Positions 12,019 to 58,811 of a stretch of 64,000 nt of DNA are shown here, piece after piece (within the stretch, counting starts at the first letter, position 1; every line of letters starts with the position of its first letter). The position numbers and the translations under genes were made by a program. The notes beneath the pieces were generated by a model. It was not told where the DNA came from, did no database searches, and was given only the letters and a program-made list of their open reading frames with translations. This stretch comes from a virus: UHGV virus genome UHGV-0219032; one strand, written 5' to 3'.

Positions 12019-12612
12019 TTATAATTTTTCTAAAAAATCTTTTCTTGCATTGGTATTATTCCAATATTCTTTTAATTCTTTTTTAAATGCTTCTGTTTCA
12101 TTATATCCACAACAATCAAATTCTGGACATAGACCACCTCTGTAAATACATTCCTTAACACAAACAGTTCTTAATTCTGGTTCATTAGGAGCAACAACTT
12201 CATCTAAAAACTTAGTCCATGCTTCTCTTGTTTCTGGTGAAGCTTTAGTACATAATCTTTTTCTTGATATATAAATAATAGCTTGTGCATTAGCTTCACA
12301 TTCATGGTTTACAGGTTCATCTTGTCTTAAAGCATTTCTATTTATACCAGTTCTATCTGTTCTTCTTGTTGAGACAAAATGTTCAATTCCATGTTTATGT
12401 CTAACAAAATGAACAGACACCCAACTTTTTAAATTTAACCATCTCCAACCAATTATTAATTTTCTAATTGGTGAATGTTCTGATATTAATAATCTTCTTT
12501 TATATTCTGATTCTGGGTATTTTCCTTTATTTAAATTAATAGTATTTAATGTGGCATTTTTAATAGTTTGCCATCTATCAACATAATCTCTCAATTCAAC
12601 TTTAAATGACAA
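12019..12612 (-). CDS. diverged ThyX-like protein (flavin-dependent thymidylate synthase-like) with C-terminal cysteine cluster
   Basis: VRHKHGIEHFVSTRR resembles the ThyX signature RHR-x7-S-xRY (RHK-x7-S). Located between nrdG and folD. Extra CxxC..CC cysteines are atypical. Confidence 0.3.
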   Translation of the reverse strand: MSFKVELRDYVDRWQTIKNATLNTINLNKGKYPESEYKRRLLISEHSPIRKLIIGWRWLNLKSWVSVHFVRHKHGIEHFVSTRRTDRTGINRNALRQDEPVNHECEANAQAIIYISRKRLCTKASPETREAWTKFLDEVVAPNEPELRTVCVKECIYRGGLCPEFDCCGYNETEAFKKELKEYWNNTNARKDFLEKL

Positions 12613-13090
12613 TTTTATCCTCCAATAATTTAGTTATATCAATTCCATTTTTATATATTTTTTGATTAGAAGAACCAAAATATCTATAATCTCCTTTTAA
12701 TTCTTCTTTATAAGCTCCACATATAATATAGTCAACATAACTAGCAATATTTAAATTTTTAATATAATTCCACTCGTAACCACTCCATAACCATATATCT
12801 TTATTTGGATATTTTGTTTTTACATATTCACATAATTCAATAACATCATTTACATTATATGGGGCTAATGGTTCTCCACCTAATATGGATAATCCACTTA
12901 TATATTCATTATCTAATAATTCTATAATTTTATTTTTTGTATTTTCATCAAAATTTTTACCATAATTTTTATCCCAAAGTTGAGAGTTGTGGCAACCATT
13001 ACATTGTAATGGACAGCCACTAACCCAAAGTGTGATTCTAATACCATCACCATTATTAAAATCACAAGTATCTATTTGAGTATATTTCAT
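12602..13090 (-). CDS. nrdG: anaerobic ribonucleotide reductase activating protein (radical SAM)
   Basis: GCPLQCNGCHN radical-SAM-like cysteine motif; size 162 aa; immediately downstream of nrdD. Confidence 0.8.
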   Translation of the reverse strand: MKYTQIDTCDFNNGDGIRITLWVSGCPLQCNGCHNSQLWDKNYGKNFDENTKNKIIELLDNEYISGLSILGGEPLAPYNVNDVIELCEYVKTKYPNKDIWLWSGYEWNYIKNLNIASYVDYIICGAYKEELKGDYRYFGSSNQKIYKNGIDITKLLEDKIVI

Positions 13091-26785: not shown

Positions 26786-29326
26786 TTAGAATGATTTTTC
26801 TTGAATACTCTCTGTAAAACCAACCTCAAATAATGTTCCAAATTCTCCATTAAATTGATAAATAGTTGGAACTATTTTTGCACCATATCTATTCTTAGGC
26901 AAAAAGAATACAAGATATTTTTTATTACTTTCTAGCTCTTTAAACTCTTTTACGTATTTTCCAGTTATTTCATCTTTTTTTATTTTAAATACTTTAATTT
27001 CATTCTTTTGACCTGGATATTCATCTGGGTATAACTCTCTTCCAGTTATTAAAATATCTAAAATTTCAACTATTTGTTTAGAGCCAGATAGACAAGATTC
27101 ATCATATATTCTTTTCATGTTTTGCTTTAAATATGATGCTATTTGATAAGATGCCATAACATGAACATTTAATTTTCTAGCTAACTCATATATATTTCTT
27201 GATTGCTGAACCAGTTTACCAACAGCAAGTTTATCTCCAGCATCTTCTGATTTCATGGTGTCTATTAAAAATTTAGTAAATCCCTTATGTGAGAATCTTC
27301 TCATAAGAATATTAAATTCAGCTATACTATATCTACTTACACAATATAAAACTAATTTATCATTATAAGTAACATCAATATATCTTTGAGCTTCGGCAAT
27401 TTTCATCATATATTCTTCATACTTTTCTTTTTCTTTTGTTTTTATCATATCCAATTCATTTAATTTTGTTCTGGTTAAATCATAATACTTTAAGTGTTTT
27501 GTTAATGTTCTTATTAATAACATATCCTTAAAATCATCTATTGCTGATTCATTGGAGTATATAAAAACTTTTTCTCCTTTATCTAAGAAATCTAACATAA
27601 TTTCATTATAGTTAATTGTAGTATTATGAGTTACAATCATATTATCTGTTAGGTATGTATGAGTTGGAGAATCAACCATTATACATTGCATTTCTTTTTC
27701 TCCAATATATTCTATGTTAGTTATAGCTAATAAATCTGTTCTTCTTTTTATCTTTCTATTTTGTGGAACTCTTGATTTATGTTTATCAGAATAAAATATT
27801 TCATCATAAGTTGAAATATTAACTATATAGCATTTTCCAAATTTATAATCTCTATTATCCTCTGTGTATGTTGCTCTATACCCCAATGTATGACACAATT
27901 GAATAATATCATCTCTTAACCTAATTGACGTGGTTGTTATGTTTTTATTCCCGCTGATAGAATTTACACAACCATCTGTATCGAATAATCCTCTTAATAA
28001 ATCCATTCTCTGCTCTATCGAACCACTCATGTACTCAATAGGTATAAATTTTTCATGACTTCCCAATCCGAAAACTTGCAATCTTTTTAACTCTCTAATT
28101 ATGTCATTTTTTAATGGGTTGGTCTGATTGCTAATATTATATGTATAGTTATTTGCATTATTTTTTGTAATTTTATAACCCATAGGTAATCTCTGTTTTA
28201 TTCTCTCAACAATATCTAACTCATTACAAGAAAATTCAATTCTAGTTTTTATACTTCCATCTCCTAATAGACAGCCAAAGATATATGGGTCTATAAAATA
28301 TTCTTTTTGTGTATATTGTAATGGTTTATTAACAGGAATAAAAGTCTGATATGTATTTCCAGATATAATTTTTCTTTTCATTATTTCTTTTAATGTTTGA
28401 ACTCTCCAATCATATTTCCCATTCTTTAATCTCCATAAATTATTATTTACCCATAAATGCTCATCACAACACTCGACAGTTGAGCCATCTTTGAATGTAA
28501 TTTTATATGATGGTTTCATACCCTGAGGGAATATTCCAGTTACATTATGAAGTTCTCCATTCATATCGTATATTTTATCGCCAATTTTAATATCTCCCAT
28601 TCTAACATAACCATTTTTCGTAAACACAAGACTATCAAGAGGTTGTGCTTTACCATTATTCGTTGGCATAGCCAACATAGACATATTACCATTGTGCATA
28701 CCTCTAGTAGCTTTACTAATTGAGAATAGATTATAAGACATTCCTCTACCGACACCATTAATTTTAGATTGTATATAATCATTATCTATTCTTAATATAA
28801 CAGGTTTAGTAGTGCTTACATCATTACAATCTCTAGCTGTTTCCAATGTATCTTCAATCTTAAAAATAATATCTTCCAACGATTTTGTTTCTATATCATT
28901 ATGTAACATACATATAGCTTCATACAATCCTCTATAAGTAGCTAATTTAGCATTAGCTTTCATTAATCCCTCAAAATGTGTTTCAAAGTTATTTGGAGAG
29001 AAATTTCTTCTTAAAGAATTTAAATGACCCATACCATTTAATGATATAAAATCATTTTTAAATTGTTCCCCTAATCTACTTAAAGCGGATTGTACACTAC
29101 CAGTATCAAATTCTGTTGCTTTATGATTATACATATCATTTAATAAATCATAATATGCTAAACCATCTTTTGTATGGAATAGATTTCTTCTACCTTGTAC
29201 CTCAACCATTAAAGATAAATCATTAACTAGAGTTCCTATTACTCTAGCTTCATGGTCTGGAATTTCACTACATAAATGTTGTGGGTATTCTATTTGCATA
29301 TTATTATACGTAAATGTTAAATTCAT
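26786..29326 (-). CDS. DnaB-like replicative helicase precursor containing an intein with LAGLIDADG endonuclease domain
   Basis: Extein Walker A LAMPTNNGK|...|TT (spliced PTNNGKTT). Insert has intein blocks and two LAGLIDADG motifs (YIFGCLLGDGS, RGLFDTDGCV). It ends MIVTHN followed by T. Confidence 0.65.
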   Translation of the reverse strand: MNLTFTYNNMQIEYPQHLCSEIPDHEARVIGTLVNDLSLMVEVQGRRNLFHTKDGLAYYDLLNDMYNHKATEFDTGSVQSALSRLGEQFKNDFISLNGMGHLNSLRRNFSPNNFETHFEGLMKANAKLATYRGLYEAICMLHNDIETKSLEDIIFKIEDTLETARDCNDVSTTKPVILRIDNDYIQSKINGVGRGMSYNLFSISKATRGMHNGNMSMLAMPTNNGKAQPLDSLVFTKNGYVRMGDIKIGDKIYDMNGELHNVTGIFPQGMKPSYKITFKDGSTVECCDEHLWVNNNLWRLKNGKYDWRVQTLKEIMKRKIISGNTYQTFIPVNKPLQYTQKEYFIDPYIFGCLLGDGSIKTRIEFSCNELDIVERIKQRLPMGYKITKNNANNYTYNISNQTNPLKNDIIRELKRLQVFGLGSHEKFIPIEYMSGSIEQRMDLLRGLFDTDGCVNSISGNKNITTTSIRLRDDIIQLCHTLGYRATYTEDNRDYKFGKCYIVNISTYDEIFYSDKHKSRVPQNRKIKRRTDLLAITNIEYIGEKEMQCIMVDSPTHTYLTDNMIVTHNTTINYNEIMLDFLDKGEKVFIYSNESAIDDFKDMLLIRTLTKHLKYYDLTRTKLNELDMIKTKEKEKYEEYMMKIAEAQRYIDVTYNDKLVLYCVSRYSIAEFNILMRRFSHKGFTKFLIDTMKSEDAGDKLAVGKLVQQSRNIYELARKLNVHVMASYQIASYLKQNMKRIYDESCLSGSKQIVEILDILITGRELYPDEYPGQKNEIKVFKIKKDEITGKYVKEFKELESNKKYLVFFLPKNRYGAKIVPTIYQFNGEFGTLFEVGFTESIQEKSF
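27623..28648 (-). mobile_element. intein (about 342 aa, begins with Ala; LAGLIDADG homing endonuclease domain) within helicase P-loop
   Basis: Boundaries inferred: AQPLDSLVFTKNGYVRMGDIKIGDKIY (N-terminal splicing block) to ...IVTHN|T. Confidence 0.6.
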
Positions 29327-31046: not shown

Positions 31047-31337
31047 TATATTTTTTAAAATTATTTTATGACCTTTTAAAATCCATTTTAAAGAGTTTAT
31101 ATTTAATAGTAGACTAATTTATTATTGAAATGTTTGTAGGGGTGTTATCTTTGGGATAGTAAGGTGTCAGTTTAAATTTATGTGGTAAAATACTCCCGGA
31201 TTTTTTTACTTAAAATCAAAAATCTTTTCACAAAAAGTTTTTGCATTTTTAAGTGGAAATATTAGTTTTCTTTTAGTAATAATATTAGTATTGACAGCGT
31301 ATTACCTTGTCTATCTAAGGGAAAACGTGAAATCGGG

Positions 31338-31393
31338 TCACACTTAGTTACCAAAAATCACACTTAGTTACCTTTAAATCACACTTAGTTACC
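31338..31393 (+). repeat. three direct 15-bp iterons (tcacacttagttacc) spaced 20-21 bp
   Basis: Exact copies at 31338-31352, 31358-31372, 31379-31393, just upstream of the rightward promoter. Confidence 0.8.
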
Positions 31394-31421
31394 AAAGATA
31401 AAAAATACATAAATCATTATA

Positions 31422-31450
31422 TTGACAAAAATGTAATATTATGCTATAAT
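31422..31450 (+). promoter_or_regulatory. near-consensus sigma70 promoter: TTGACA-N17-TGcTATAAT (extended -10)
   Basis: ttgacaaaaatgtaatattatgctataat; drives rightward operon starting 31481. Confidence 0.65.
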
Positions 31451-31480
31451 AATTTTATAGAATAATATTGGAGGGAATAT

Positions 31481-31723
31481 ATGAGTAAAATTATTAAAAG
31501 AGTATTTAGCAAATCGAAAGCAAATGATTTAATTTCTATGGGTAATACTCTGTTAAAAACAGAAAAAGATTATATAAAACCAAAAAGAGAAATTTATATA
31601 TTTGAAAGAACTGATAAATTAATCAAAGATTTGTCCGCTCTTCATAATATATATATAAAAAATAAAACAATAGGAGTGCGAAATGAAAAATATAATAGTG
31701 GAAAATTATTTAACAATTCATAA
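31481..31723 (+). CDS. hypothetical protein (80 aa)
   Basis: First ORF after promoter, RBS ggaggg. Confidence 0.35.
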   Translation: MSKIIKRVFSKSKANDLISMGNTLLKTEKDYIKPKREIYIFERTDKLIKDLSALHNIYIKNKTIGVRNEKYNSGKLFNNS

Positions 31724-32498
31724 AGAATTAATAGGAAAACAAATTAATTTATCAAAACCAAATTCTATATTATTATTTATGGAAGTTTGTAGAATAAAAC
31801 AAATGGAGATTAAAGCATTACAAAATAATTTCCAAAAAAATATAGATAATGATTTAATAATTAATAAGAGTAGATTGGAAAATATAATTGATAAAGCATT
31901 AATAAAACAAAATATAAAAATTCAAAATCTTATTGATGATTTTAATAATGGCTCATACTTCATAAATAAAGATGGAGAGATTATTGAAATCATAGAATTT
32001 ATAAATTTTTATAAAAATACTGGAGAAATTGAAGTAGTATTTAATATGGAAAATTTTATAAAATATTTTATAAATATAAAAGACAATTTTACAAAATTAC
32101 CATTAGAATATTTTAAGGGGATTAAAAGTAAAAATGTTACTATGTTGTTAATGTATATAATGAAATATAGTAATGTGAAAAATGTATTTATACCAAATAG
32201 TGATTTATTATTTTTATTAAATATAAATAAAAATAATAAATTATCTCACTTGAATCAATCTATAAAAAGAGTCATAGAACAAATTAAAAAAATAAATTTA
32301 GATGAGTTAAAAAAATTAAATATAGAAAAGAATAAAAATAATAACTTTGATATTAAATTTTCTAGTTTTGAAATAAATATTATAATGGAAAATAAAAAAG
32401 ATATAATTATTAAAAAAACAGAAAATAAAAAAGATGAAAATTGCAATTTTACAGAGAGTGAATTAGCAATTTATACAGGAGGTTATAATGATAATTGA
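31683..32498 (+). CDS. hypothetical protein, candidate iteron-binding replication initiator (Rep_3-like?)
   Basis: Position directly downstream of iterons; N-terminus VENYLTIHKELIG...SILLFMEVCRI loosely resembles plasmid Rep N-termini. Weak. Confidence 0.25.
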   Translation: MKNIIVENYLTIHKELIGKQINLSKPNSILLFMEVCRIKQMEIKALQNNFQKNIDNDLIINKSRLENIIDKALIKQNIKIQNLIDDFNNGSYFINKDGEIIEIIEFINFYKNTGEIEVVFNMENFIKYFINIKDNFTKLPLEYFKGIKSKNVTMLLMYIMKYSNVKNVFIPNSDLLFLLNINKNNKLSHLNQSIKRVIEQIKKINLDELKKLNIEKNKNNNFDIKFSSFEINIIMENKKDIIIKKTENKKDENCNFTESELAIYTGGYNDN

Positions 32499-32790
32499 TT
32501 CAAAAATTAAAGGTGTTGTATGGATAAACAATTCAAAGAATAGCAAATATTCAAATGGTATTATTTATGCTACATGTGGAAAACAAATTAAATTTATTCA
32601 TTTTAAAGAGACAGATGATTTGTATGTCAATTTAAATAAAGAAGAAGATAAATATGATACTTATGTTGGAAAGGCTAAAATTTTTGGTTTTAAAAATAAA
32701 CTAAAAAATAAATTAACAAGTCCAGATTTCTACCTAACAAGAATAAGTATTGAGTTTATAGATGTTGGAAATATAGAGGAAGAAATATAA
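32488..32790 (+). CDS. hypothetical protein (100 aa)
   Basis: ORF with RBS aggagg. Confidence 0.3.
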   Translation: MIIDSKIKGVVWINNSKNSKYSNGIIYATCGKQIKFIHFKETDDLYVNLNKEEDKYDTYVGKAKIFGFKNKLKNKLTSPDFYLTRISIEFIDVGNIEEEI

Positions 32791-32878
32791 CTATTAATTA
32801 TAATATGTACTTGAATAGTAAATAAAATTATGATATAATTAATTTGCATTTATATTTTAGAAGAATAATATTCAAAGA

Positions 32879-32960: not shown

Positions 32961-35522
32961 ATGGGATTAACAGAGGAACAAAAGCAAATATTAAGTTGCA
33001 CAAACAATGGTTTAATTATTGTAAATGCTCTAGCTGGAACAGGAAAAACAAGTACACTATTAGAATGGTGCAAACAAAAACCACATCTAAAAATACTATA
33101 TTTGGTCTTTGGCAAAGCTATGAGTGACGAGGCTAAAAAAATGTTTAAGGATTTAAAAAATGTTCATGTTAAAACTACTCATTCTTTGGCATTTAAAAGT
33201 TTTGGAGTTAAATATAAATCAAAATTAACTCAATCATATAGAGCAATAGATTGTATGAGAGATTTAGATTTGAATGGTGATTATGATACAGCTAATAGTG
33301 TATTATCATTATTTAATAAATTTTTATCTAGTGATAGTGATGATATATATAAATTTACACAAACTATACTTAGAGGATATGGAATTAGAAATGAACATAA
33401 AATTAATAGCTTATCTAAATTATGTGATAAGTTATGGAAAAAATCTATTGATTTAAATGATGACACTCAAGTAGTACATGATTTTTATTTAAAGTTATAC
33501 CAAATGTCAAAACCTAATCTTGGATTAGAATATGATGTTATGATGGTAGATGAGTGTGTACATGGTGATATGTATGTTGTTACAGATGAAGGAGATAAAA
33601 AGATAAGTGTATTACATGATAAATTTCAAAGTGGAAAAAATGTACCTAAAATTTTAAGTTATAATGAAAATCTTGGTATATATGAATATAAAGATATGAA
33701 TTTTTCAAAAGTTACACATAACAGAGAAATATTAACTATAAAAACAGAAGGTTTAAATATTATAAAAGTTACTGGAAATCACCCAATACTTACACAGAGG
33801 GGATATGTTGAAGCAGACCAATTAATATGTGGAAGTGATTATGTATTTTTAGATACACCACAAAACCAAAAAACAAAAATCGTATTAAATGACGACCAAA
33901 CACAAATAGTTATTGGTAGCTTTTTGGGAGATGGAACTATTGACAAAAGAAGTCAATATAATACTTATAGAGTGAGTTTTACACATGGAGAAAAACAAAA
34001 AAAATATTTAGAGTGGAAAACAAAAATGTTTAATATAGATGGTATAAAAAATATAAAAAGTGGATATACTGGTAAGAATAATATTTATCAAAGTAATCCA
34101 AGTAAAACATTTATCTTAAATGAAGATTTAATTAGATTATGTCATGATATGGATTCGAGAGCTTTGGCAATATGGTATATGGATGACGGTAGTTACTCAA
34201 ATGAAAGCGGTTGTTGTGCAATACATTCTAATGCTTTTGGAAAAGATGAACATTTATTGTTTCAATTTATATTAAAAAATAATTTTGGAATACATGCAGA
34301 AATTAGCATAACTAAAGGTTATTATTATTTACGTTTTAATAAATCAGAATCTCAAAAATTACTTATGTTAATTAAACCATACATGCACGAAGATTTATAC
34401 TATAAAAATCCATTATGTTATCATGATAATTTTCAAAAATATCAATGGAATAATAAATTTAAGGCATATGGTGGTAATTTCATTATATCAATAGAATCAT
34501 CTGAATATGGTGATGTTTATGATATAGGTGTAGAAGATAATCATAATTTCATTATAAAATCCACACCAAGTAAATGTAGTAGAAAAACAACTGGTGTTAT
34601 AGTTCATAATTGTCAAGACAGTACACTAACTATTAAAGGTATAATAGACTCATCAAAGGATAAATTAAAACAAGTGATACTCATAGGAGACCCACACCAA
34701 AGTATATTTCAATTTAGAAACTGTGTTAATTTAATTGAGATATATTCAAAAGAAGCTACAAATTATGATTTAACAGGAAGTTTTAGGGTAAATCAAAATA
34801 TAGCTAATATGTGTAATATGCTATTGGATATGTTTAAAAGAAAAAAAGTTCACATGAATGGATATAATAAAAATCAAAAAATATATTCTGATAAAGGTTT
34901 AAATTTTGAAAATATGCAAAGTCAATTCAACATTATAACTAGAACTAATGCAACTATATTGGCTCATGCCATAGAAGCATCTATGAGAGGTAAATGGCTT
35001 TATTTTGAAGGTGGATATAATAGTTATCCATTTCAATTTTATAAAGATTTATATTGGTTTAGAGCAACAAATCAAACATATAATAAGGAACTTAATAAAT
35101 TTAAAGATTGGGAAGAGTTACAACAATATGCAACTGAAGCTGATGATATAGAATTATTAACAGGAATAAAATTTATTAATATGTATTCAAGTAAAGTTGA
35201 TAGTTTACCTAATGCTATTGATAATGTAAAAAATTATGTTGTATCTAAGAGAGAACAAGCTAATTTCTGTTATTGTACAGCACATAAAAGTAAAGGTTTA
35301 ACTTTTGAAACACCAACATTAATTGAGAAAGATTTTCCTCATTTAATAGATTGGCAAAAAACAATGACTAATATTATATCTATGTCTCATATTTATCCAG
35401 ATGCTTTAGATAAATTTCTAAAAGATATTGAACAAGATGTAAACCTTGCATATGTAGCTATTACTCGTGCTAAGGGTGATATATATTTAAATGAAGATAT
35501 GGTTAAATTTTTTAATTTATAA
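32961..35522 (+). CDS. SF1 UvrD/PcrA-like DNA helicase precursor containing an intein with LAGLIDADG endonuclease domain
   Basis: Walker A NALAGTGKTSTL. Motif II split: MMVDE|C...intein...VHN|CQDS (spliced VDECQD). Intein has SFLGDGTIDK and LAIWYMDDGSYS motifs and a C-terminal block GDVYDIGVEDNHNF...VIVHN. Confidence 0.65.
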   Translation: MGLTEEQKQILSCTNNGLIIVNALAGTGKTSTLLEWCKQKPHLKILYLVFGKAMSDEAKKMFKDLKNVHVKTTHSLAFKSFGVKYKSKLTQSYRAIDCMRDLDLNGDYDTANSVLSLFNKFLSSDSDDIYKFTQTILRGYGIRNEHKINSLSKLCDKLWKKSIDLNDDTQVVHDFYLKLYQMSKPNLGLEYDVMMVDECVHGDMYVVTDEGDKKISVLHDKFQSGKNVPKILSYNENLGIYEYKDMNFSKVTHNREILTIKTEGLNIIKVTGNHPILTQRGYVEADQLICGSDYVFLDTPQNQKTKIVLNDDQTQIVIGSFLGDGTIDKRSQYNTYRVSFTHGEKQKKYLEWKTKMFNIDGIKNIKSGYTGKNNIYQSNPSKTFILNEDLIRLCHDMDSRALAIWYMDDGSYSNESGCCAIHSNAFGKDEHLLFQFILKNNFGIHAEISITKGYYYLRFNKSESQKLLMLIKPYMHEDLYYKNPLCYHDNFQKYQWNNKFKAYGGNFIISIESSEYGDVYDIGVEDNHNFIIKSTPSKCSRKTTGVIVHNCQDSTLTIKGIIDSSKDKLKQVILIGDPHQSIFQFRNCVNLIEIYSKEATNYDLTGSFRVNQNIANMCNMLLDMFKRKKVHMNGYNKNQKIYSDKGLNFENMQSQFNIITRTNATILAHAIEASMRGKWLYFEGGYNSYPFQFYKDLYWFRATNQTYNKELNKFKDWEELQQYATEADDIELLTGIKFINMYSSKVDSLPNAIDNVKNYVVSKREQANFCYCTAHKSKGLTFETPTLIEKDFPHLIDWQKTMTNIISMSHIYPDALDKFLKDIEQDVNLAYVAITRAKGDIYLNEDMVKFFNL
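33555..34610 (+). mobile_element. intein (about 352 aa, Cys1...Asn; LAGLIDADG) inserted in helicase motif II
   Basis: Starts CVHGDMYVVTDEGDKKISVL, ends TGVIVHN; +1 residue Cys. Confidence 0.6.
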
Positions 35523-35770: not shown

Positions 35771-35846
35771 TGGGTTGTAGCTCAATAGGTAGAGCATTGG
35801 TCTGTTAAACCAAATGTAGAGGGTTCGATTCCCTCCAACCCAGCCA
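35771..35846 (+). tRNA. tRNA-Asn (GTT), CCA encoded
   Basis: Cloverleaf folded by hand. Acceptor tgggttg/caaccca, anticodon loop ctgttaa, T-arm gaggg-TTCGATT-ccctc. Confidence 0.75.
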
Positions 35847-35851
35847 AATAT

Positions 35852-35939
35852 GGTAGGTTATCCTAAATGGCTAAGGAGCTGGTCTTGAAAACCAGTAAAT
35901 GTGAAAGCATGTAAGAGTTCGAGTCTCTTACCTACCTCC
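35852..35939 (+). tRNA. tRNA-Ser (TGA), long variable arm, CCA encoded
   Basis: Acceptor ggtaggt/acctacc, anticodon loop cttgaaa, long extra arm, T-loop TTCGAGT. Confidence 0.7.
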
Positions 35940-35943
35940 ATAA

Positions 35944-36032
35944 TATGTAGTTGGTGGAATTGGAATACACGTGGTGCTTAGAACACCATTCTTAAAAAGA
36001 TTGAGAGTTCAAATCTCTCACTACATACCAAT
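35944..36032 (+). tRNA. tRNA-Leu (TAG), long variable arm, CCA encoded
   Basis: Acceptor atgtagt/actacat, anticodon loop cttagaa, T-arm gagag-TTCAAAT-ctctc. Confidence 0.7.
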
Positions 36033-36034
36033 AG

Positions 36035-36106
36035 ATGTGTAGTTTAATGTAAAACATCAGACTCCAAATCTGAAAGTTATGGGTTCGAGTCCTATCGCAT
36101 CTGCCA
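36035..36106 (+). tRNA. tRNA-Trp (CCA), CCA encoded
   Basis: Acceptor agatgtg/cgcatct, anticodon stem tcaga/tctga with loop ctccaaa, T-loop TTCGAGT. Confidence 0.7.
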
Positions 36107-36199: not shown

Positions 36200-36751
36200 T
36201 TGGGTTTTAACTGTATTATAAGGGAAGTGATATATATTAATAATATAGTTTATATAAAACATTTTGATAATGGTAAGAAATATATTGGTATAACAAATAA
36301 TTTTAAAAGAAGAATGTATGAACATATAAAAAGTGCATATAAAAATAATAGTAAACTTCCTGTACATAATGCCATGAGAAAATATAATCATACAACAGAA
36401 ATTGTATTTATGAGTAACTGTTATGATGATGTTTTAAAAATGGAAAAGATTATTATAAAAAATTTTAAAGATATTGGAATTGATTTATATAATATTACAG
36501 ATGGAGGAGAAGGAAGTTTAGGATTAAAAGTATCAAATGAAACAAAATTAAAAATTAGTAATTCTTTAAAGGGAAATAATAATCCACGTTCAAGAACTAA
36601 AGAACATTATGCTATAACTCCAACTATGAGAAATAATTTTAAGACTACATGTAAACGTATGGGTTGGGATTTTAATTATTTTATTGAAGTATATAGCGGT
36701 CAAAATAGTCATGAACATAAAAAGTATTATTATATTGAAAAATTTATGTAA
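36200..36751 (+). CDS. GIY-YIG homing endonuclease with NUMOD3-like motif, inserted in tRNA cluster (start codon uncertain, TTG/GTG)
   Basis: VYIKHFDNGKKYIGITNNFKRRMYEH (GIY...YIG...R...E), NITDGGEG; ETKLKISNSLKG (NUMOD3-like). Confidence 0.7.
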   Translation: MGFNCIIREVIYINNIVYIKHFDNGKKYIGITNNFKRRMYEHIKSAYKNNSKLPVHNAMRKYNHTTEIVFMSNCYDDVLKMEKIIIKNFKDIGIDLYNITDGGEGSLGLKVSNETKLKISNSLKGNNNPRSRTKEHYAITPTMRNNFKTTCKRMGWDFNYFIEVYSGQNSHEHKKYYYIEKFM

Positions 36752-36801: not shown

Positions 36802-36804
36802 TAT

Positions 36805-36877
36805 GCCTATATAGTTCAGTTGGTAGAACAAGGGTGCAGAAACACCCATGTCGCTGGTTCGACTCTAGTTATAGGCA
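36805..36877 (+). tRNA. tRNA-like gene with aberrant anticodon arm (6-nt loop cagaaa closed by gggtg/caccc); possibly Phe-like or a pseudo-tRNA
   Basis: Good acceptor gcctata/tataggc, D-arm gttc-agttggta-gaac and T-loop TTCGACT. Anticodon region does not fit a 5-bp stem plus 7-nt loop. Confidence 0.45.
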
Positions 36878-36979
36878 ACACTCGGTTGGTAGACCCGTAA
36901 AACTACCAAATTGCTCATATACCAAGTGTATAATGAGATACCAGCTCGACAATGTCAGAACTGGCTTTTATAATTAAAT

Positions 36980-37053
36980 GGGGATTTCGCCTAAAAGTAG
37001 GGCAATAGTCTGCAAAACTATTTGAAGCGGGGCAGTACCGCTAATCCCCTCCA
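36980..37053 (+). tRNA. tRNA-Cys (GCA) with non-canonical T-loop (ggcagta), CCA encoded
   Basis: Acceptor ggggatt/aatcccc, anticodon stem atagt/actat with loop ctgcaaa. Confidence 0.6.
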
Positions 37054-37057
37054 AAAA

Positions 37058-37132
37058 TGTGGGTTAGAGTAGTGGTTACTCATTAGTCTCATAAGATAAT
37101 TTAGGTCAGTTCAATTCTGACACCCGTAACCA
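37058..37132 (+). tRNA. tRNA with CAT anticodon (Met/fMet or Ile2), CCA encoded
   Basis: Anticodon loop ctcataa, D-arm gagt/actc, T-arm gtcag-TTCAATT-ctgac. Acceptor has two G-U pairs; anticodon stem one mismatch. Confidence 0.55.
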
Positions 37133-37136
37133 ATGT

Positions 37137-37225
37137 GATAGTGTAACCCTAATAGTAAGGGAACAGTTTGCTAAACTGTGAGTAGTGTTTTACACGTGTT
37201 GGTGCAAGTCCAATCGCTATCGCCA
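37137..37225 (+). tRNA. tRNA-Ser (GCT), long variable arm, CCA encoded
   Basis: Anticodon stem acagt/actgt with loop ttgctaa, extra arm gtgt-ttt-acac, acceptor gatagtg/cgctatc. Confidence 0.6.
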
Positions 37226-37229
37226 ATAT

Positions 37230-37304
37230 TTCGAGATAGCCAAGCGGTAAGGCAACGGATTTTGACTCCGTCATGCGAATGTTCAAATCATTCTCTCGAA
37301 ACCA
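37230..37304 (+). tRNA. tRNA-Gln (TTG), CCA encoded
   Basis: Acceptor ttcgaga/tctcgaa, anticodon stem acgga/tccgt with loop ttttgac, T-arm gaatg-TTCAAAT-cattc. Confidence 0.7.
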
Positions 37305-39913: not shown

Positions 39914-39922
39914 GTGATAATT

Positions 39923-41884
39923 ATGCTAGATAGACTTTCAGATGGAGAATTAAATCAACTTAAATCTATTGAAGTTGTTATTAATGATATTAAATGTGGA
40001 ATGAATATAAACGAAAATATAAAATTATTATCTATTAGGCATAATATAACAAAATCTTATTTACAAGATATTAGAAAACCATTTTTACATGAAGATGATT
40101 TAAGATATATTGAAGATTTAAATAATAGGATATGGCAAATATTAGAACCAGTTTATGATAACTTATCACAATTAGCTTTGGAACATATGCACCAATGGTA
40201 CAAAAGGGTTAGAAAAGCTAGTGGAGAAGTTGACCCAAAACTATATCAATATCAATTAGATTTAGCATTTTGGTTACTTTCAGCTATAATAAAAAATGAA
40301 TTGCCAGATGCTCTATATACATTATTGGTAAGTAGAGGAAGTGGAAAAACATTTACTCTTTCTGTTGTCGCTGTATTTCTTTTATTACATTGGGAGAATT
40401 ATATTCTACATAATTCATCAACAGATTGGGTTTTAATAGTAACAGCTCCACAAGACGACCAATTAGCATCATTTAAAAATTATATTAATGAATTAATTGA
40501 TGTTTCAAAAAGTATAGGTATAATTTCTGATTCTTACAAAATATCATCTGAAATGAATTTAGTTCAAACTAAAAGAAATGATAAAGAACTTAATATAAAT
40601 AGAGATAATGGGGCTAAATATGGAATAGTATATTTTAGATTAGGTTCTCAACAAGTAGAATCATTACATGGAAATTTATTACTTTCAGATGAAAGTAAAT
40701 TCTTAACTAAACAAGCAATTCAAACATCTATGCTACCAGCTGTTGGAGGTAGAAGTGGTATATTTGTTATGCTATCTTCAGCTCATAATAAATGGTCTCA
40801 ATACCAAGAATATGTAGAAATGAATATGGAATTAGATTTAGAGGATTATCATAATCTCGGAACTAGATGTATTATGAGCGGTTCAAATGAAACTAGAGAT
40901 TTATGTTTTAATGGTAGAAGATTATTTATTCAACATTGGTCTCAAATGATTAGATATAATAATAAATATGCAATAACTATTCAAAGAGCTTTAAATGCTG
41001 TGGATAATAATAGAGATGAGGAATCATTTGCTACACAATATGATAATAGATTTTTGGCTGTAAAATCAGCATCATTCTTTGATATAAGAGCATTAAAAGA
41101 AATGAAAACTGTATTCCAACATTATGATGCTCATAAATATCTAAATAATTATAATTATTGTATTATTGCTGGTGTAGACTTTGCTATTACTGGGGATATT
41201 TCAGATTTTACTATTAAAGCAGTACCAAATACATGGGGAACTAATAGAGAGTCTATATTATTATTTAAATATGTATTAAATCCAAGTAAAGATAAAAATA
41301 TAGATGCTATAATTAATCAATTACATATTATATTTAAATATGTAAAATTATATAATATTTCAGCAATTATATTTGATGAAACTGGATTAGGCAAATCATC
41401 TCCAGAATTATTCAAAGAAATTTTAAGAAAAAATAATTATACAAAATTATCAGAAAATAATGTATATGGTTTTGAATTTAAAGCAAAGAAGAGAACAGAT
41501 TTATTGGAATTTTATTGGGGTAGAATCCAGGCCGGAAAAGAAATTATGCCAAATATTCCAAAAGAGTGGGAAGATGAAGATACATTAAAAAGATTATATA
41601 TGGAAGCTGTAAATAAAATTGATGAGAAATCATGCTATATTAGACATATACATGAACATGCTATGTTTTCAAGAAATGAAATTAAGAATGATAACATGGA
41701 AGTAGTAGTAGAATATAGACAAGCAAATTATAAATATTTACATGATGATAGTATAATGAGTAGTTCTATGTGTTCATATATATTATATCTAAATCCAAAT
41801 ATACATTCTTTGGGAGAACAAGCACAAATAACAACTTTAAAAACAGCTCAAATATTAAAAAATAGATTTAGAAGAGGTAGATAA
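39923..41884 (+). CDS. terL: terminase large subunit
   Basis: Walker A LVSRGSGKTF, Walker B-like region, C-terminal RNase H-like nuclease motif IIAGVDFAITGD. Confidence 0.7.
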   Translation: MLDRLSDGELNQLKSIEVVINDIKCGMNINENIKLLSIRHNITKSYLQDIRKPFLHEDDLRYIEDLNNRIWQILEPVYDNLSQLALEHMHQWYKRVRKASGEVDPKLYQYQLDLAFWLLSAIIKNELPDALYTLLVSRGSGKTFTLSVVAVFLLLHWENYILHNSSTDWVLIVTAPQDDQLASFKNYINELIDVSKSIGIISDSYKISSEMNLVQTKRNDKELNINRDNGAKYGIVYFRLGSQQVESLHGNLLLSDESKFLTKQAIQTSMLPAVGGRSGIFVMLSSAHNKWSQYQEYVEMNMELDLEDYHNLGTRCIMSGSNETRDLCFNGRRLFIQHWSQMIRYNNKYAITIQRALNAVDNNRDEESFATQYDNRFLAVKSASFFDIRALKEMKTVFQHYDAHKYLNNYNYCIIAGVDFAITGDISDFTIKAVPNTWGTNRESILLFKYVLNPSKDKNIDAIINQLHIIFKYVKLYNISAIIFDETGLGKSSPELFKEILRKNNYTKLSENNVYGFEFKAKKRTDLLEFYWGRIQAGKEIMPNIPKEWEDEDTLKRLYMEAVNKIDEKSCYIRHIHEHAMFSRNEIKNDNMEVVVEYRQANYKYLHDDSIMSSSMCSYILYLNPNIHSLGEQAQITTLKTAQILKNRFRRGR

Positions 41885-57842: not shown

Positions 57843-58811
57843 ATGGGAGTTGTCTATTTAAAAATTTTTGATAGAGAAGATAGAGAGAATGGATATTATA
57901 TAGGAATAACAAATGATTTTAAATCAAGAATGAACGGTCATAATTCTTATGCCTATACTAGAAAATCTCAATTACCAGTTTATAGAGCTATGAGAAAATA
58001 TAACCATAAAACTGAAATATTAGCAGAAATAGATGATTATGATTTATTAAAACAAATGGAGATTGAAGCTATTAAATTATTTAGAGAATATGGTATGAGG
58101 TTATATAATTTAACAGATGGTGGAGATGGCACAGTAGGTGTAAAATTATCAAAAGAAGTTATTGAAAGAAGGGCTAGTAAATTAAGAGGTAAGAAAAGAG
58201 ACCCAGAAATTATTAAAAAGATTGCCACAGCCAATACCGGAAAGAAAAGAACTTTAGAAGTAAGGTTAAAATTATCAAATATTCATAAAGGAAAAGTTAT
58301 ACCAAGAGATATAGTTGAAAAGATTAGACAAAAAAATATAGGAAAAACTAGAAGTGATGAATTTAAACAAAAAGTAAGAGAAAGACTTTTAGGTGTAAGT
58401 TTATCAGAAGAACATAAATTACACATATCACAAAGTCATAAAGGTAAAAAACTTTCAGAAGAACATAAATTAAAAATAAAAAATTCAAATAAAGGAAGAA
58501 AACCAACAGAATTAAATATAAAAATGAGAACTTTAGGTTGGAAGAAATATTATGAAAATGGTGTAAAACTTTCGGAGGAACATAAAAATAATATTAAAAT
58601 TGGCATGAAGAAAACTCAAAAATATGGCATAGAACATCATAGTACAAAGCCAATTAATTATTATGAAGATAAACCAATAAGAAAATATGATTTTAAATGT
58701 AAATGTAAAAAATTAAATTATAATTTTGAAGATTTTGAGGAAATATTTGCATTTAAAAGAAATGGATATAATTTATATTATTATAAGTATAAGGGAGGTT
58801 TAGATGAGTAA
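57843..58811 (+). CDS. GIY-YIG homing endonuclease with tandem NUMOD3-like repeats, inserted between baseplate and tail-fibre genes
   Basis: VYLKIFDREDRENGYYIGITNDFKSRMNGH (GIY-YIG), NLTDGGDG; repeats LSEEHKLHISQSHKGKK / LSEEHKLKIKNSNKGRK / LSEEHKNNIKIGMKK. Confidence 0.7.
   Translation: MGVVYLKIFDREDRENGYYIGITNDFKSRMNGHNSYAYTRKSQLPVYRAMRKYNHKTEILAEIDDYDLLKQMEIEAIKLFREYGMRLYNLTDGGDGTVGVKLSKEVIERRASKLRGKKRDPEIIKKIATANTGKKRTLEVRLKLSNIHKGKVIPRDIVEKIRQKNIGKTRSDEFKQKVRERLLGVSLSEEHKLHISQSHKGKKLSEEHKLKIKNSNKGRKPTELNIKMRTLGWKKYYENGVKLSEEHKNNIKIGMKKTQKYGIEHHSTKPINYYEDKPIRKYDFKCKCKKLNYNFEDFEEIFAFKRNGYNLYYYKYKGGLDE

Follow-up and report, generated by a model that had tools for sequence, protein, structure and literature searches.

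Several ATPase genes of phages and bacteria are already known to carry inteins. Novikova et al. (2016) listed 16 inteins in bacterial UvrD helicases and 21 in bacterial PhoH proteins (PMC4760082). Among phages, a UvrD intein extending from Cys292 to Asn576 has been described in the Bacillus phages SPO1 and CampHawk (PMC3868849), and a PhoH intein in Campylobacter phage IBB_35 (PMC3322345). The P-loop and the Walker B motif are hot spots for intein insertion, as in DnaB-b, MCM, PolIII gamma and TerL1-e (PMC4760082, PMC5050341).

In this study, we analysed an insert in a helicase gene of UHGV virus genome UHGV-0219032, of which a stretch of 64,000 nucleotides (the window) was available. The insert is very likely a true mobile intein of class 1 that probably still functions and carries an I-SceI-type LAGLIDADG endonuclease; it is located in motif II (VDE/CQD; a slash marks the insertion junction) of a phage FBH1/UvrD-like SF1 helicase. 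The published UvrD inteins, compared by description, are likewise class-1 elements in a conserved ATPase motif of a UvrD-family SF1 helicase, encoded by a phage or bacterial replication or repair gene. However, the host protein here belongs to the FBH1-like branch of the UvrD family, unlike those of the published cases. No similarity between the window intein and the Bacillus phage inteins was detectable. The UvrD gene was not found in the 60-110 kb region of SPO1, where the helicases were UvsW-like and DnaB-like, plus an unrelated NTPase, none of them with an intein. The hot-spot inteins share with the present one the insertion in a catalytic ATPase motif and a nucleophilic +1 residue, but the site used here, the Walker B Glu of an SF1 helicase, differs from DnaB-b, MCM, PolIII gamma and TerL1-e and is unnamed in the two surveys (PMC4760082, PMC5050341).

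The PhoH inteins, such as that of phage IBB_35, are among the nearest relatives after the UvrD-like group, with 32-39% identity over the full length. They have a common Hint and LAGLIDADG_2 architecture, a basic F-G loop and an equivalent junction (VDE/C...HN/CQN), and the DNA at the two junctions is alike (GTAGATGAA/TGCCAAAAT versus GTAGATGAG/TGTCAAGAC). They differ in the host family (PF02562) and in having Asn, not Asp, after the Gln. The present element is unexceptional within a large class of selfish elements that is already known, and inteins of UvrD and PhoH have been published before.

The helicase gene and its insert

The gene and its parts are as follows.

32961..35522, + strand: helicase open reading frame, a single open frame encoding an 853-aa UvrD/FBH1-like SF1 helicase precursor
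32961..33554, + strand: N-extein (precursor aa 1-198)
33555..34610, + strand: intein, class 1 by its predicted residues, 352 aa, from Cys1 to His351-Asn352
34611..35522, + strand: C-extein (precursor aa 551-853 and the stop codon)

The gene begins with the ATG at 32961. Walker A (AGTGKTST) lies in the N-extein, whose last two residues are the D-E of motif II (Walker B). The C-extein opens with the +1 Cys (34611..34613), followed by the remaining QD of that motif, by GDPHQSIFQFR as motif III and by motifs V/VI (TAHKSKGLTF, VAITRAKG). The helicase exteins matched PF00580 (41.9 bits), PF13361 (31.4 bits) and PF13245 (30.5 bits), with PF00580 and PF13245 in the N-extein and PF13361 in the C-extein. 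Human FBH1 (PDB 9xzj) aligned with the spliced extein end to end over 493 residues (E 3e-40), placing VDECQD on VDEAQD; the C-extein was also delimited by the family alignment. All SF1 motifs align to FBH1 once the insert is removed, and Walker A, motif II DExQD, motif III GDxxQxI(Y/F)xFR and motifs V/VI occur in order. Judged from its sequence, the host protein is a UvrD-like helicase of SF1 whose greatest similarity is to FBH1. The finding matters mainly for annotation: the locus holds one helicase gene and no fusion, with a predicted mature protein of 501 aa.

The insert comprises 1056 nt, is in frame and free of stop codons, and has the same G+C content (25.5%) as the exteins and the window. 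It lies between Glu198 of motif II and the following Cys. GAT GAG (D197 E198) ends at 33554, and the TGT at 33555 encodes Cys1 of the intein; the terminal Asn is encoded by AAT at 34608-34610 and the +1 Cys by TGT at 34611. The sequence-only reading, which had placed an intein at 33555-34610 in motif II of an SF1 UvrD-like helicase, proved exact to the base, and both the Pfam matches and the FBH1 alignment bear out its host assignment. The junction peptides that it quoted (MMVDE/CVHGDMYVVTDEG, GDVYDIGVEDNHNFIIKS and GVIVHN/CQDST) are all found in the translation, as is its excision product: the predicted spliced protein of 501 aa contains VDECQD. Its two LAGLIDADG motifs are likewise present in the translation and align to those of I-SceI.

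Splicing and endonuclease domains

Within the intein, the following parts were distinguished.

33555..33869, + strand: Hint N-terminal lobe (intein aa 1-105; lobe limits approximate)
33555-33557, + strand: block A, Cys1, the N-terminal nucleophile
33771..33782, + strand: block B, T73-G-N-H76 (TxxH)
33870..34424, + strand: LAGLIDADG domain, I-SceI-type, monomeric (intein aa ~106-290)
33918..33947, + strand: LAGLIDADG motif 1, SFLGDGTIDK, acidic residue D126
34173..34199, + strand: LAGLIDADG motif 2, WYMDDGSYS, acidic residue D211
34425..34610, + strand: Hint C-terminal lobe (intein aa 291-352)
34515..34550, + strand: block F, VYDIGVEDNHNF, which includes VEDNHNF
34593..34610, + strand: block G, GVIVHN

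The Hint homology on which the sequence-only reading depended was borne out by profile and by model. PF14890 (Intein_splicing) scored 40.3 bits, a margin of only about 4.5 bits over the cut-off of 35.8, and phmmer against PDB matched the N-terminal lobe to the Spl DnaX mini-intein 7cfv. The AlphaFold2 model of the intein (pLDDT 91.2, pTM 0.87) retrieved with Foldseek the TliVMA, PI-PfuI and PI-SceI inteins, with full inteins at E 1e-14, and its Hint lobes retrieved mini-inteins at an rmsd of 1.6-2.1. In an alignment of 18 family members, C1, T73 and H76 are conserved (T73 and H76 invariant), and V321, V326, E327, D328, N329, H330, N331, H351 and N352 are nearly invariant. Hint blocks A, B, F and G, Cys1 with TxxH, His-Asn with Cys+1, and an in-frame site that is uninterrupted in homologues place the insert in class 1. 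Every residue that canonical class-1 splicing requires is present: Cys1, Thr73/His76, VEDNHNF, His351-Asn352 and Cys+1. The basic F-G loop KSTPSKCSRKTT, of 12-13 residues, is atypical among inteins, yet it is family-specific: it occurs in most aligned relatives of the family and is comparable in most of the PhoH-borne ones. Class 3 (WCT) inteins have no nucleophile at position 1 and carry Trp (B:12), Cys (F:4) and Thr (G:5). This identity was rejected for the helicase insert, which has Cys1 and a block G (IVHN) without Thr at G:5.

The middle domain matched PF03161 (LAGLIDADG_2) at 77 bits, and phmmer aligned intein aa 108-287 with I-SceI (1r7m/5a0m; E ~1e-4). Foldseek retrieved I-SceI (1r7m/5a0m) and I-WcaI (6x1j) at E 1e-10 to 1e-11, with a target-normalised TM of 0.62-0.67 and an rmsd of ~3.5. 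In the model the domain would adopt the pseudo-dimeric alpha-beta-beta-alpha-beta-beta-alpha fold. The likeness to I-SceI and I-WcaI thus extends over sequence, predicted fold and both conserved acidic motif residues; those enzymes, however, are free-standing and encoded in a group I intron, whereas the present endonuclease domain sits within a Hint domain. The LAGLIDADG_3 model gave only 17.8 bits (cut-off 22.5); PI-SceI and PI-PfuI, the classic intein endonucleases, belong to the LAGLIDADG_3 family. G121, L124, G125, D126, W207, M209, D210, D211 and G212 are invariant in the 18-member alignment. The dN/dS ratio of the whole intein was 0.15-0.39 and that of its endonuclease domain 0.13-0.42, the latter indicating that the element is under purifying selection.

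After translation, Cys1 would form a thioester with Glu198, the N-extein would be transferred to Cys+1, and cyclisation of Asn352 would free the intein. An S-to-N shift would then yield the 501-aa helicase with VDECQD intact. The precursor is presumably inactive, its Walker B being split by 352 residues. The freed 40-kDa intein may cut helicase alleles without an intein in co-infecting related phages, as an endonuclease specific for a site at approximately ...GATGAA/GCTCAAGAT.... Repair off the intein-bearing genome would copy the intein along with flanking DNA, about 10 nt on the upstream side and 70-120 nt on the downstream side. The converted tract would have to take in the codon for Cys at +1, a position at which empty alleles usually encode A, M, V or G.

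Empty sites and putative conversion tracts

The intein is absent from most helicase homologues. An allele with a 98%-identical helicase, P0001, has an empty site (DE-AQD) at which the N- and C-exteins abut, and the aligned flanks of its phage (L001) are 98.3-99.3% identical to the window. Empty sites also occur in P0003/4/6/7/10-15 and in 311 GenBank phage records. Thus, the empty insertion sites for which the sequence-only reading proposed to look in related phages do exist, and the insert is not a conserved insertion domain of all homologues, the outcome that would have told against that reading. The +1 residue is Cys in all intein-bearing alleles and A, M, V or G in most empty ones; two alleles with an insert at Walker A, P0009/P0017, combine an empty site and Cys at +1. 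In three lineages, alleles that are 97-98% identical to one another differ in whether they carry the intein. Megablast of GenBank phages with the helicase gene gave no match, a scan of viral_contigs with the spliced helicase gave no confirmed relative, and a scan of genome_contigs (GTDB) with P0001 found none.

Comparison with L001, whose empty-site DNA reads TATGATGTTATGTTAATAGATGAA/GCTCAAGATAGTACAATGACT, delimited two tracts at the junction by SNP mapping.

33543..33554, + strand: putative co-conversion tract, 5' part, 4 substitutions versus L001
34611..34682, + strand: putative co-conversion tract, 3' part, 17 substitutions versus L001; +1 codon TGT (Cys) versus GCT (Ala)

Between the window and L001, 21 of the 47 differences fall inside -12..+72 (84 of 1506 nt; binomial P = 1.4e-14), and there are none at -165 to -12 or at +73 to +320. 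In the L005/L007 pair, 29 of 73 differences lie within +/-60, and in the L003/L008 pair a breakpoint lies near +120. Such clustering of substitutions next to the insertion point, seen in three independent pairs of intein-bearing and intein-less alleles, appears to be the footprint of gene conversion. A second cluster of substitutions, around Walker A (33005..33164), was considered as an import from L009, an allele with the Walker A insert; it matches L009 at 7 sites and L001 at 5, and this candidate was dropped for lack of signal.

The element looks recently mobile. Nucleotide identity between lineages is 80% and 73% for the intein and 74% and 71% for the extein, and such similar divergence fits long residence as well as recent invasion. 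No close donor of the intein was found among the sampled alleles. Polarising gain against loss with the other lineages as outgroups gave an ambiguous signal: the window lineage may have gained the intein, or L001 may have lost it by recombining with an empty allele.

It is rather unlikely, though to be taken seriously, that the intein splices with an inactive endonuclease, as a domesticated or decaying element transmitted only vertically, and that the clustered substitutions reflect ordinary recombination or old events. In the homing-cycle model the endonuclease decays once the element is fixed, so that such decay would be expected. The parallel divergence of intein and extein between lineages is in keeping with this, and family searches found no near-identical intein in another extein background. 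However, both acidic LAGLIDADG residues and their surrounding motifs are invariant, the dN/dS of the endonuclease domain is no worse than that of the Hint lobes, and the alternation of presence and absence in near-identical alleles of three lineages, with breakpoints at the site, speaks for a mobile element.

Resistance to homing endonucleases through change of the target site is known, and the flanking substitutions in the empty alleles might be selected resistance mutations rather than co-conversion tracts. In favour of this explanation, L001 differs at six positions in the middle ~30 bp of its site, -1, +1 and +2 among them. We regard it as improbable, since the tracts reach +72 and about +120 nt, well past the 18-22 bp of a LAGLIDADG site, they are as divergent (25-32%) as the lineages are from each other, and their borders are sharp, with substitution-free DNA on both sides. 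Tract length, divergence and borders thus indicate imported DNA rather than point mutations. It is extremely unlikely that the insert is a Hint domain of a non-splicing type (pretoxin-HINT or bacterial intein-like, BIL) or that it belongs permanently to the helicase as an insertion domain. The weak Pfam match to PT-HINT (PF07591; 21.5 bits) that might suggest such an identity is below the cut-off of 27.7, and the terminal His-Asn, the +1 Cys and the embedded homing endonuclease mark inteins, not BILs, for which reason a BIL or pretoxin-HINT identity was rejected. In addition, an unspliced protein with a split Walker B could hardly hydrolyse ATP, and near-identical functional alleles exist without the insert. 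A splicing, mobile intein is the preferred reading.

Other selfish elements and the DE/C family

Other selfish elements were identified in the window.

27623..28648, - strand: second intein, 342 aa, in a DnaB-like helicase, at a P-loop (GK/T) site, 4.9 kb from the UvrD-like intein
36200..36751: free-standing homing-endonuclease gene, GIY-YIG and NUMOD3
57843..58811: free-standing homing-endonuclease gene, GIY-YIG and NUMOD3

The DnaB intein fits the class 3 (WCT) pattern, and its presence varies independently of the intein in the UvrD-like helicase. The earlier claim of two inteins in two helicases about 5 kb apart was therefore correct. Of the three free-standing homing-endonuclease genes claimed with it, two were recovered; a third was not found by motif regex, by Pfam scan of 59 ORFs or by PHROGs on candidates. 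The description as an unusually heavy load of selfish elements was overstated: for large virulent phages, a count of two inteins plus two GIY-YIG genes over 64 kb is not exceptional (e.g. PMC3322345, PMC3853055). The 656-aa ORF at 39914..41884 had no tblastn match in cultured phages, and PolIII alpha reached at most 36% identity to cultured phages; together these indicate a phage without a close cultured relative.

An exhaustive search placed the helicase intein in a very large family, with 765 relatives at E <= 1e-10. By phmmer coordinates, about 150 of 171 relatives are inserted at DE/C, and the hosts at this junction among the examined members were SF1, SF2 and PhoH ATPases. Tentatively, the intein may be one branch of a very large and perhaps undescribed clade of Hint and I-SceI-type inteins, whose endonucleases would recognise Walker-B/DExx DNA (core GAYGAR/TGYCA) and hop between distantly related or unrelated ATPases (SF1 UvrD-like, SF2 DExH, PhoH, RecQ), always at DE/C. 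The census of junctions and the likeness of the DNA around them are observed, whereas motif-directed homing between families is conjecture.

The three natural pairs of near-identical alleles with and without the intein, available in public metagenomes, are a ready system for the measurement of homing. The same pairs could be used to determine the length of co-conversion and the need for import of the +1 Cys. The DE/C family could help in the study of how a homing endonuclease switches from one host gene to another, and it is a possible source of new splicing domains or rare-cutting nucleases.

Intein and host helicase

An intein in motif II of an SF1 UvrD-like helicase had been proposed by the sequence-only reading. 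Its coordinates proved exact to the base when the DNA was read and translated, and every peptide cited was found in the translation.

32961..35522 (+), single long ORF of 853 aa
ending at 33554 (+), GAT GAG, D197 E198
33555 (+), TGT, insert codon 1
34608-34610 (+), AAT, final insert codon
34611 (+), TGT, next host-protein residue

The insert is in frame (1056 nt, 352 aa), and its removal leaves a helicase of 501 aa that reads ...YDVMMVDE-CQDSTLTIKG.... G+C content is at the same level in the insert (25.5%), the exteins (25.7%) and the window (25.4%). Pfam was run on the precursor and separately on the insert. In the precursor, the helicase flanks match UvrD-helicase (PF00580, 41.9 bits), UvrD_C (PF13361) and AAA_19. 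The spliced protein aligns with human F-box DNA helicase 1 (FBH1; 9xzj) over 493 residues (E 3e-40); its VDECQD falls on the motif II VDEAQD of FBH1, and Walker A, motif III and motifs V/VI also align. Because of this motif alignment, we place the insert directly after the Walker-B Glu of a UvrD-family SF1 helicase of the FBH1-like branch, in agreement with the motif II site first proposed.

A Hint-domain search had been suggested as a check, and the insert matched Intein_splicing (PF14890) at 40.3 bits, above the gathering score of 35.8, as well as LAGLIDADG_2 (PF03161) at 77 bits; PT-HINT was below its cut-off for the insert. In sequence comparison with solved structures, the ends match the Spl DnaX mini-intein (7cfv) and residues 108-287 match I-SceI (1r7m, 5a0m). 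An AlphaFold2 model, built from a family alignment of 18 sequences, is confident (pLDDT 91.2, pTM 0.87). Its whole-chain Foldseek matches in the PDB are the endonuclease-bearing inteins TliVMA, PI-PfuI and PI-SceI (E down to 3e-14). The middle domain resembles I-SceI and I-WcaI (target-normalised TM 0.62-0.67, rmsd ~3.5 A) and the Hint lobes resemble the mini-inteins DnaX, NrdJ-1 and RecA (rmsd 1.6-2.1 A). In the same 18-sequence alignment, the block B TxxH residues T73 and H76 are invariant, as are the key residues of both LAGLIDADG motifs that had been noted in the insert (G121, L124, G125 and D126; W207, M209, D210, D211 and G212). C1, block F (V321, V326, E327, D328, N329, H330, N331) and block G (H351, N352) are nearly invariant. 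An unusual basic loop of 12-13 residues, KSTPSKCSRKTT, lies between blocks F and G, and most relatives in the alignment have a comparable loop. Judged by its residues, the intein has a complete class-1 set, its double-motif endonuclease is apparently intact, and it probably splices. These results support the view that motif II of this phage UvrD/FBH1-like helicase is occupied by a genuine class-1 intein, one that carries an I-SceI-type LAGLIDADG endonuclease.

Inteins of this kind are well known. Novikova et al. listed 16 bacterial UvrD helicase inteins and 21 PhoH inteins (PMC4760082), the genome announcement of Bacillus phage CampHawk placed a UvrD helicase intein at Cys292-Asn576, 'like SPO1' (PMC3868849), and Campylobacter phage IBB_35 was reported to have PhoH inteins (PMC3322345). 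That inteins tend to insert in P-loop and Walker-B motifs is well recognised (PMC4760082, PMC5050341). Among GenBank phages, the helicase gene had no megablast match and the best intein match was 30% identical, so the intein is without a close cultured relative. By these comparisons, it is a new sequence of a well-known kind.

Second intein and free-standing endonuclease genes

The following elements were also identified.

26786..29326 (-), DnaB-like helicase ORF
27623..28648 (-), 342-aa insert in the DnaB-like helicase, in the P-loop (GK|T)
36200..36751 (+), GIY-YIG+NUMOD3 homing-endonuclease gene
57843..58811 (+), GIY-YIG+NUMOD3 homing-endonuclease gene, 322 aa, among tail/baseplate genes

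The DnaB insert had likewise been taken for an intein, and this holds: both ends of the insert are similar to the gp41-1 intein (6riz, E 5e-11), and the DnaB genes on the contigs L001 and L003 lack it. The central part matches both PI-SceI-type endonucleases and, in Pfam, LAGLIDADG_3/Hom_end; Pfam Intein_splicing gave no match in this insert. Position 1 is Ala, where gp41-1 has Cys1; block B contains HLW, block F has a Cys (QCIMVDS), and THN|T is also present. Together these motifs read as the class-3 (WCT) pattern defined previously (PMC5050341).

Three free-standing homing-endonuclease genes had been counted; two were recovered, and a third was looked for in the window and not found. The selfish load had been called unusually heavy. 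Two inteins and two such genes in 64 kb are a fair load, but not an exceptional one for large lytic phages. The gene at 36200..36751 lies within a seven-tRNA cluster, between the tRNAs at 35771..36106 and 36804..37304. In L001, a 98-99% identical phage, the same slot (12233..12982) holds an HNH endonuclease gene that is unrelated to it; different selfish genes thus occupy this slot, reminiscent of T4 segB. Adjoining the GIY-YIG gene in the cluster, ARAGORN called 36804..36879 (+) as tRNA-??? with the ambiguous anticodon call 'ga'. A cassette is also swapped between these near-identical phages (window 31149..32802, L001 6509..9844). In L001 its products are a Rep3_N protein and an AAA_33/metallophosphatase/RNA-ligase protein of 717 aa; the window has ORFs of 80, 271 and 100 aa there, the second with a weak Rep3_N match.

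Empty alleles and probable conversion tracts

Related phages had been proposed as a place to look for empty sites, and these were abundant. When the spliced helicase was compared by tblastn with 50,697 phage records, 311 matches were obtained, 262 of them spanning 80% or more of the query at a single place; 38 of the 40 matches listed are a single contiguous piece and therefore have no insert at the motif II position. Alleles were also surveyed by a search of 5.8 billion proteins and alignment of the resulting homologues. The intein is present in P0002 (96% extein identity), P0005 (66%), P0008 (65%) and two Cetobacterium MAG fragments, and absent from P0001 (98%), P0003/4 (about 70%), P0006, P0007 and P0010-15. 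The intein-less alleles, P0001 included, rule out a conserved domain of all homologues. P0001 sits on L001, a 79-kb contig whose flanking DNA is 98.3-99.3% identical to the window wherever aligned, and both L001 helicases are uninterrupted (DnaB 504 aa, UvrD-like 501 aa). Since L001 lacks both inteins and L003 has the UvrD intein with an uninterrupted DnaB, the two inteins have been gained or lost independently.

All intein-bearing alleles share VDE|CQDST.TIKGI, and the +1 residue (the first after the intein) is A, M, V or G in most empty alleles. The exceptions are P0009 and P0017, whose empty motif II site already has Cys at +1 (DECQD) and in which Walker A is interrupted. These helicases, on Paraclostridium and Cetobacterium MAG contigs (P0009 at L009 4682..7204), carry a different insert of 343 aa with the junctions AG|CVDSETEFF...KIFITGN|SGKS (Cys1, terminal Asn, +1 Ser). 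Pfam gave no intein or endonuclease match in it; from its junctions, it is possibly a divergent, so far unrecognised intein.

The window gene minus the intein was aligned to that of L001 over 1506 nt of coding sequence. Of the 47 differing positions, 21 lie from -12 to +72 nt of the insertion point (25% divergence), and the stretches -165 to -12 and +73 to +320 are free of differences (binomial P 1.4e-14 for the clustering). The intein-bearing L005 and intein-less L007 are 97% identical elsewhere, and 29 of their 73 differences fall within +/-60 nt of the site. Between L003 (occupied) and L008 (empty), divergence is high to about +120 nt, with ~3 differences per 60 nt beyond it. The simplest reading of these tracts is co-copying of intein and extein flank: double-strand-break repair would copy the intein with a short flanking extein stretch, which would have to contain the Cys codon needed for splicing. 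It is possible that the intein was instead lost by recombination with an empty allele, which would give an identical footprint; other lineages, used as outgroups, indicated no direction of gain versus loss. Target-site 'resistance' mutations fit more poorly because the tracts reach far past an 18-22-bp recognition site and diverge as much as the lineages do from each other. The intein looks mobile, at least recently.

A separate cluster of 21 mostly synonymous window substitutions, relative to both L001 and L004, lies at 33005..33164 (+), that is, -34 to +125 nt about the Walker A codons where P0009 and P0017 carry their insert. No donor allele was found among the alleles compared; the cluster could be an old recombination tract.

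The DE|C family, selection and age

With only the intein as query, a word-indexed search found PhoH ATPase inteins placed at VDE|C...HN|CQN, which match over the full length at 32-39% identity, and SF2 helicase inteins at DE|C...N|CHH. When 1.84 billion cluster representatives were searched exhaustively with HMMER, 3458 matches were obtained at E <= 1e-3, 150 of them at E <= 1e-30. Junctions were called by phmmer coordinates for 171 relatives (listed representatives and earlier matches), and host families were confirmed by Pfam scans of ten examples.

Intein junctions among the 171 relatives
DE|C(Q/N)D, SF1, UvrD-like: about 47
DE|CHx, SF2, DExH: about 51
DE|CQN, PhoH-like: about 40
DE|CGD: 4
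DEAH|C, RecQ-like: 4
GDx|CQ, some UvrD (P0177 has a Pfam UvrD-helicase match): a few
other junctions, SNF2: a few

Among the matches listed, the closest relatives with a readable junction (40-54% identity) all have a UvrD-like C(Q/N)D junction. The GDx|CQ group comprises P0177, P0198, P0253 and P0218, and its site is read as helicase motif III. In P0237, P0270, P0276 and P0279 the intein follows DEAH, ahead of the natural Cys of RecQ-type DEAHC. Both sites have the local pattern 'acidic residue | Cys'. Junction DNA is alike in PhoH and UvrD alleles (GTAGATGAA|TGCCAAAAT and GTAGATGAG|TGTCAAGAC), which makes occasional cross-family homing plausible.

By the Nei-Gojobori method, with the window compared to three further copies of the intein, dN/dS was 0.15-0.39 for the whole intein, 0.13-0.42 for the endonuclease domain alone and 0.12-0.21 for the exteins. 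Because the values for the intein and its endonuclease domain are low, both splicing and endonuclease functions appear to be maintained. Between lineages, nucleotide identity of the intein (93%, 80%, 73%) tracks that of the extein (97%, 74%, 71%), so long residence is possible; the intein may have been in this helicase family for long, with alternating gain and loss. Of most interest are the naturally occurring pairs of alleles with and without the intein, whose conversion tracts have sharp edges, together with the great size of the DE|C family and its spread over ATPase classes.
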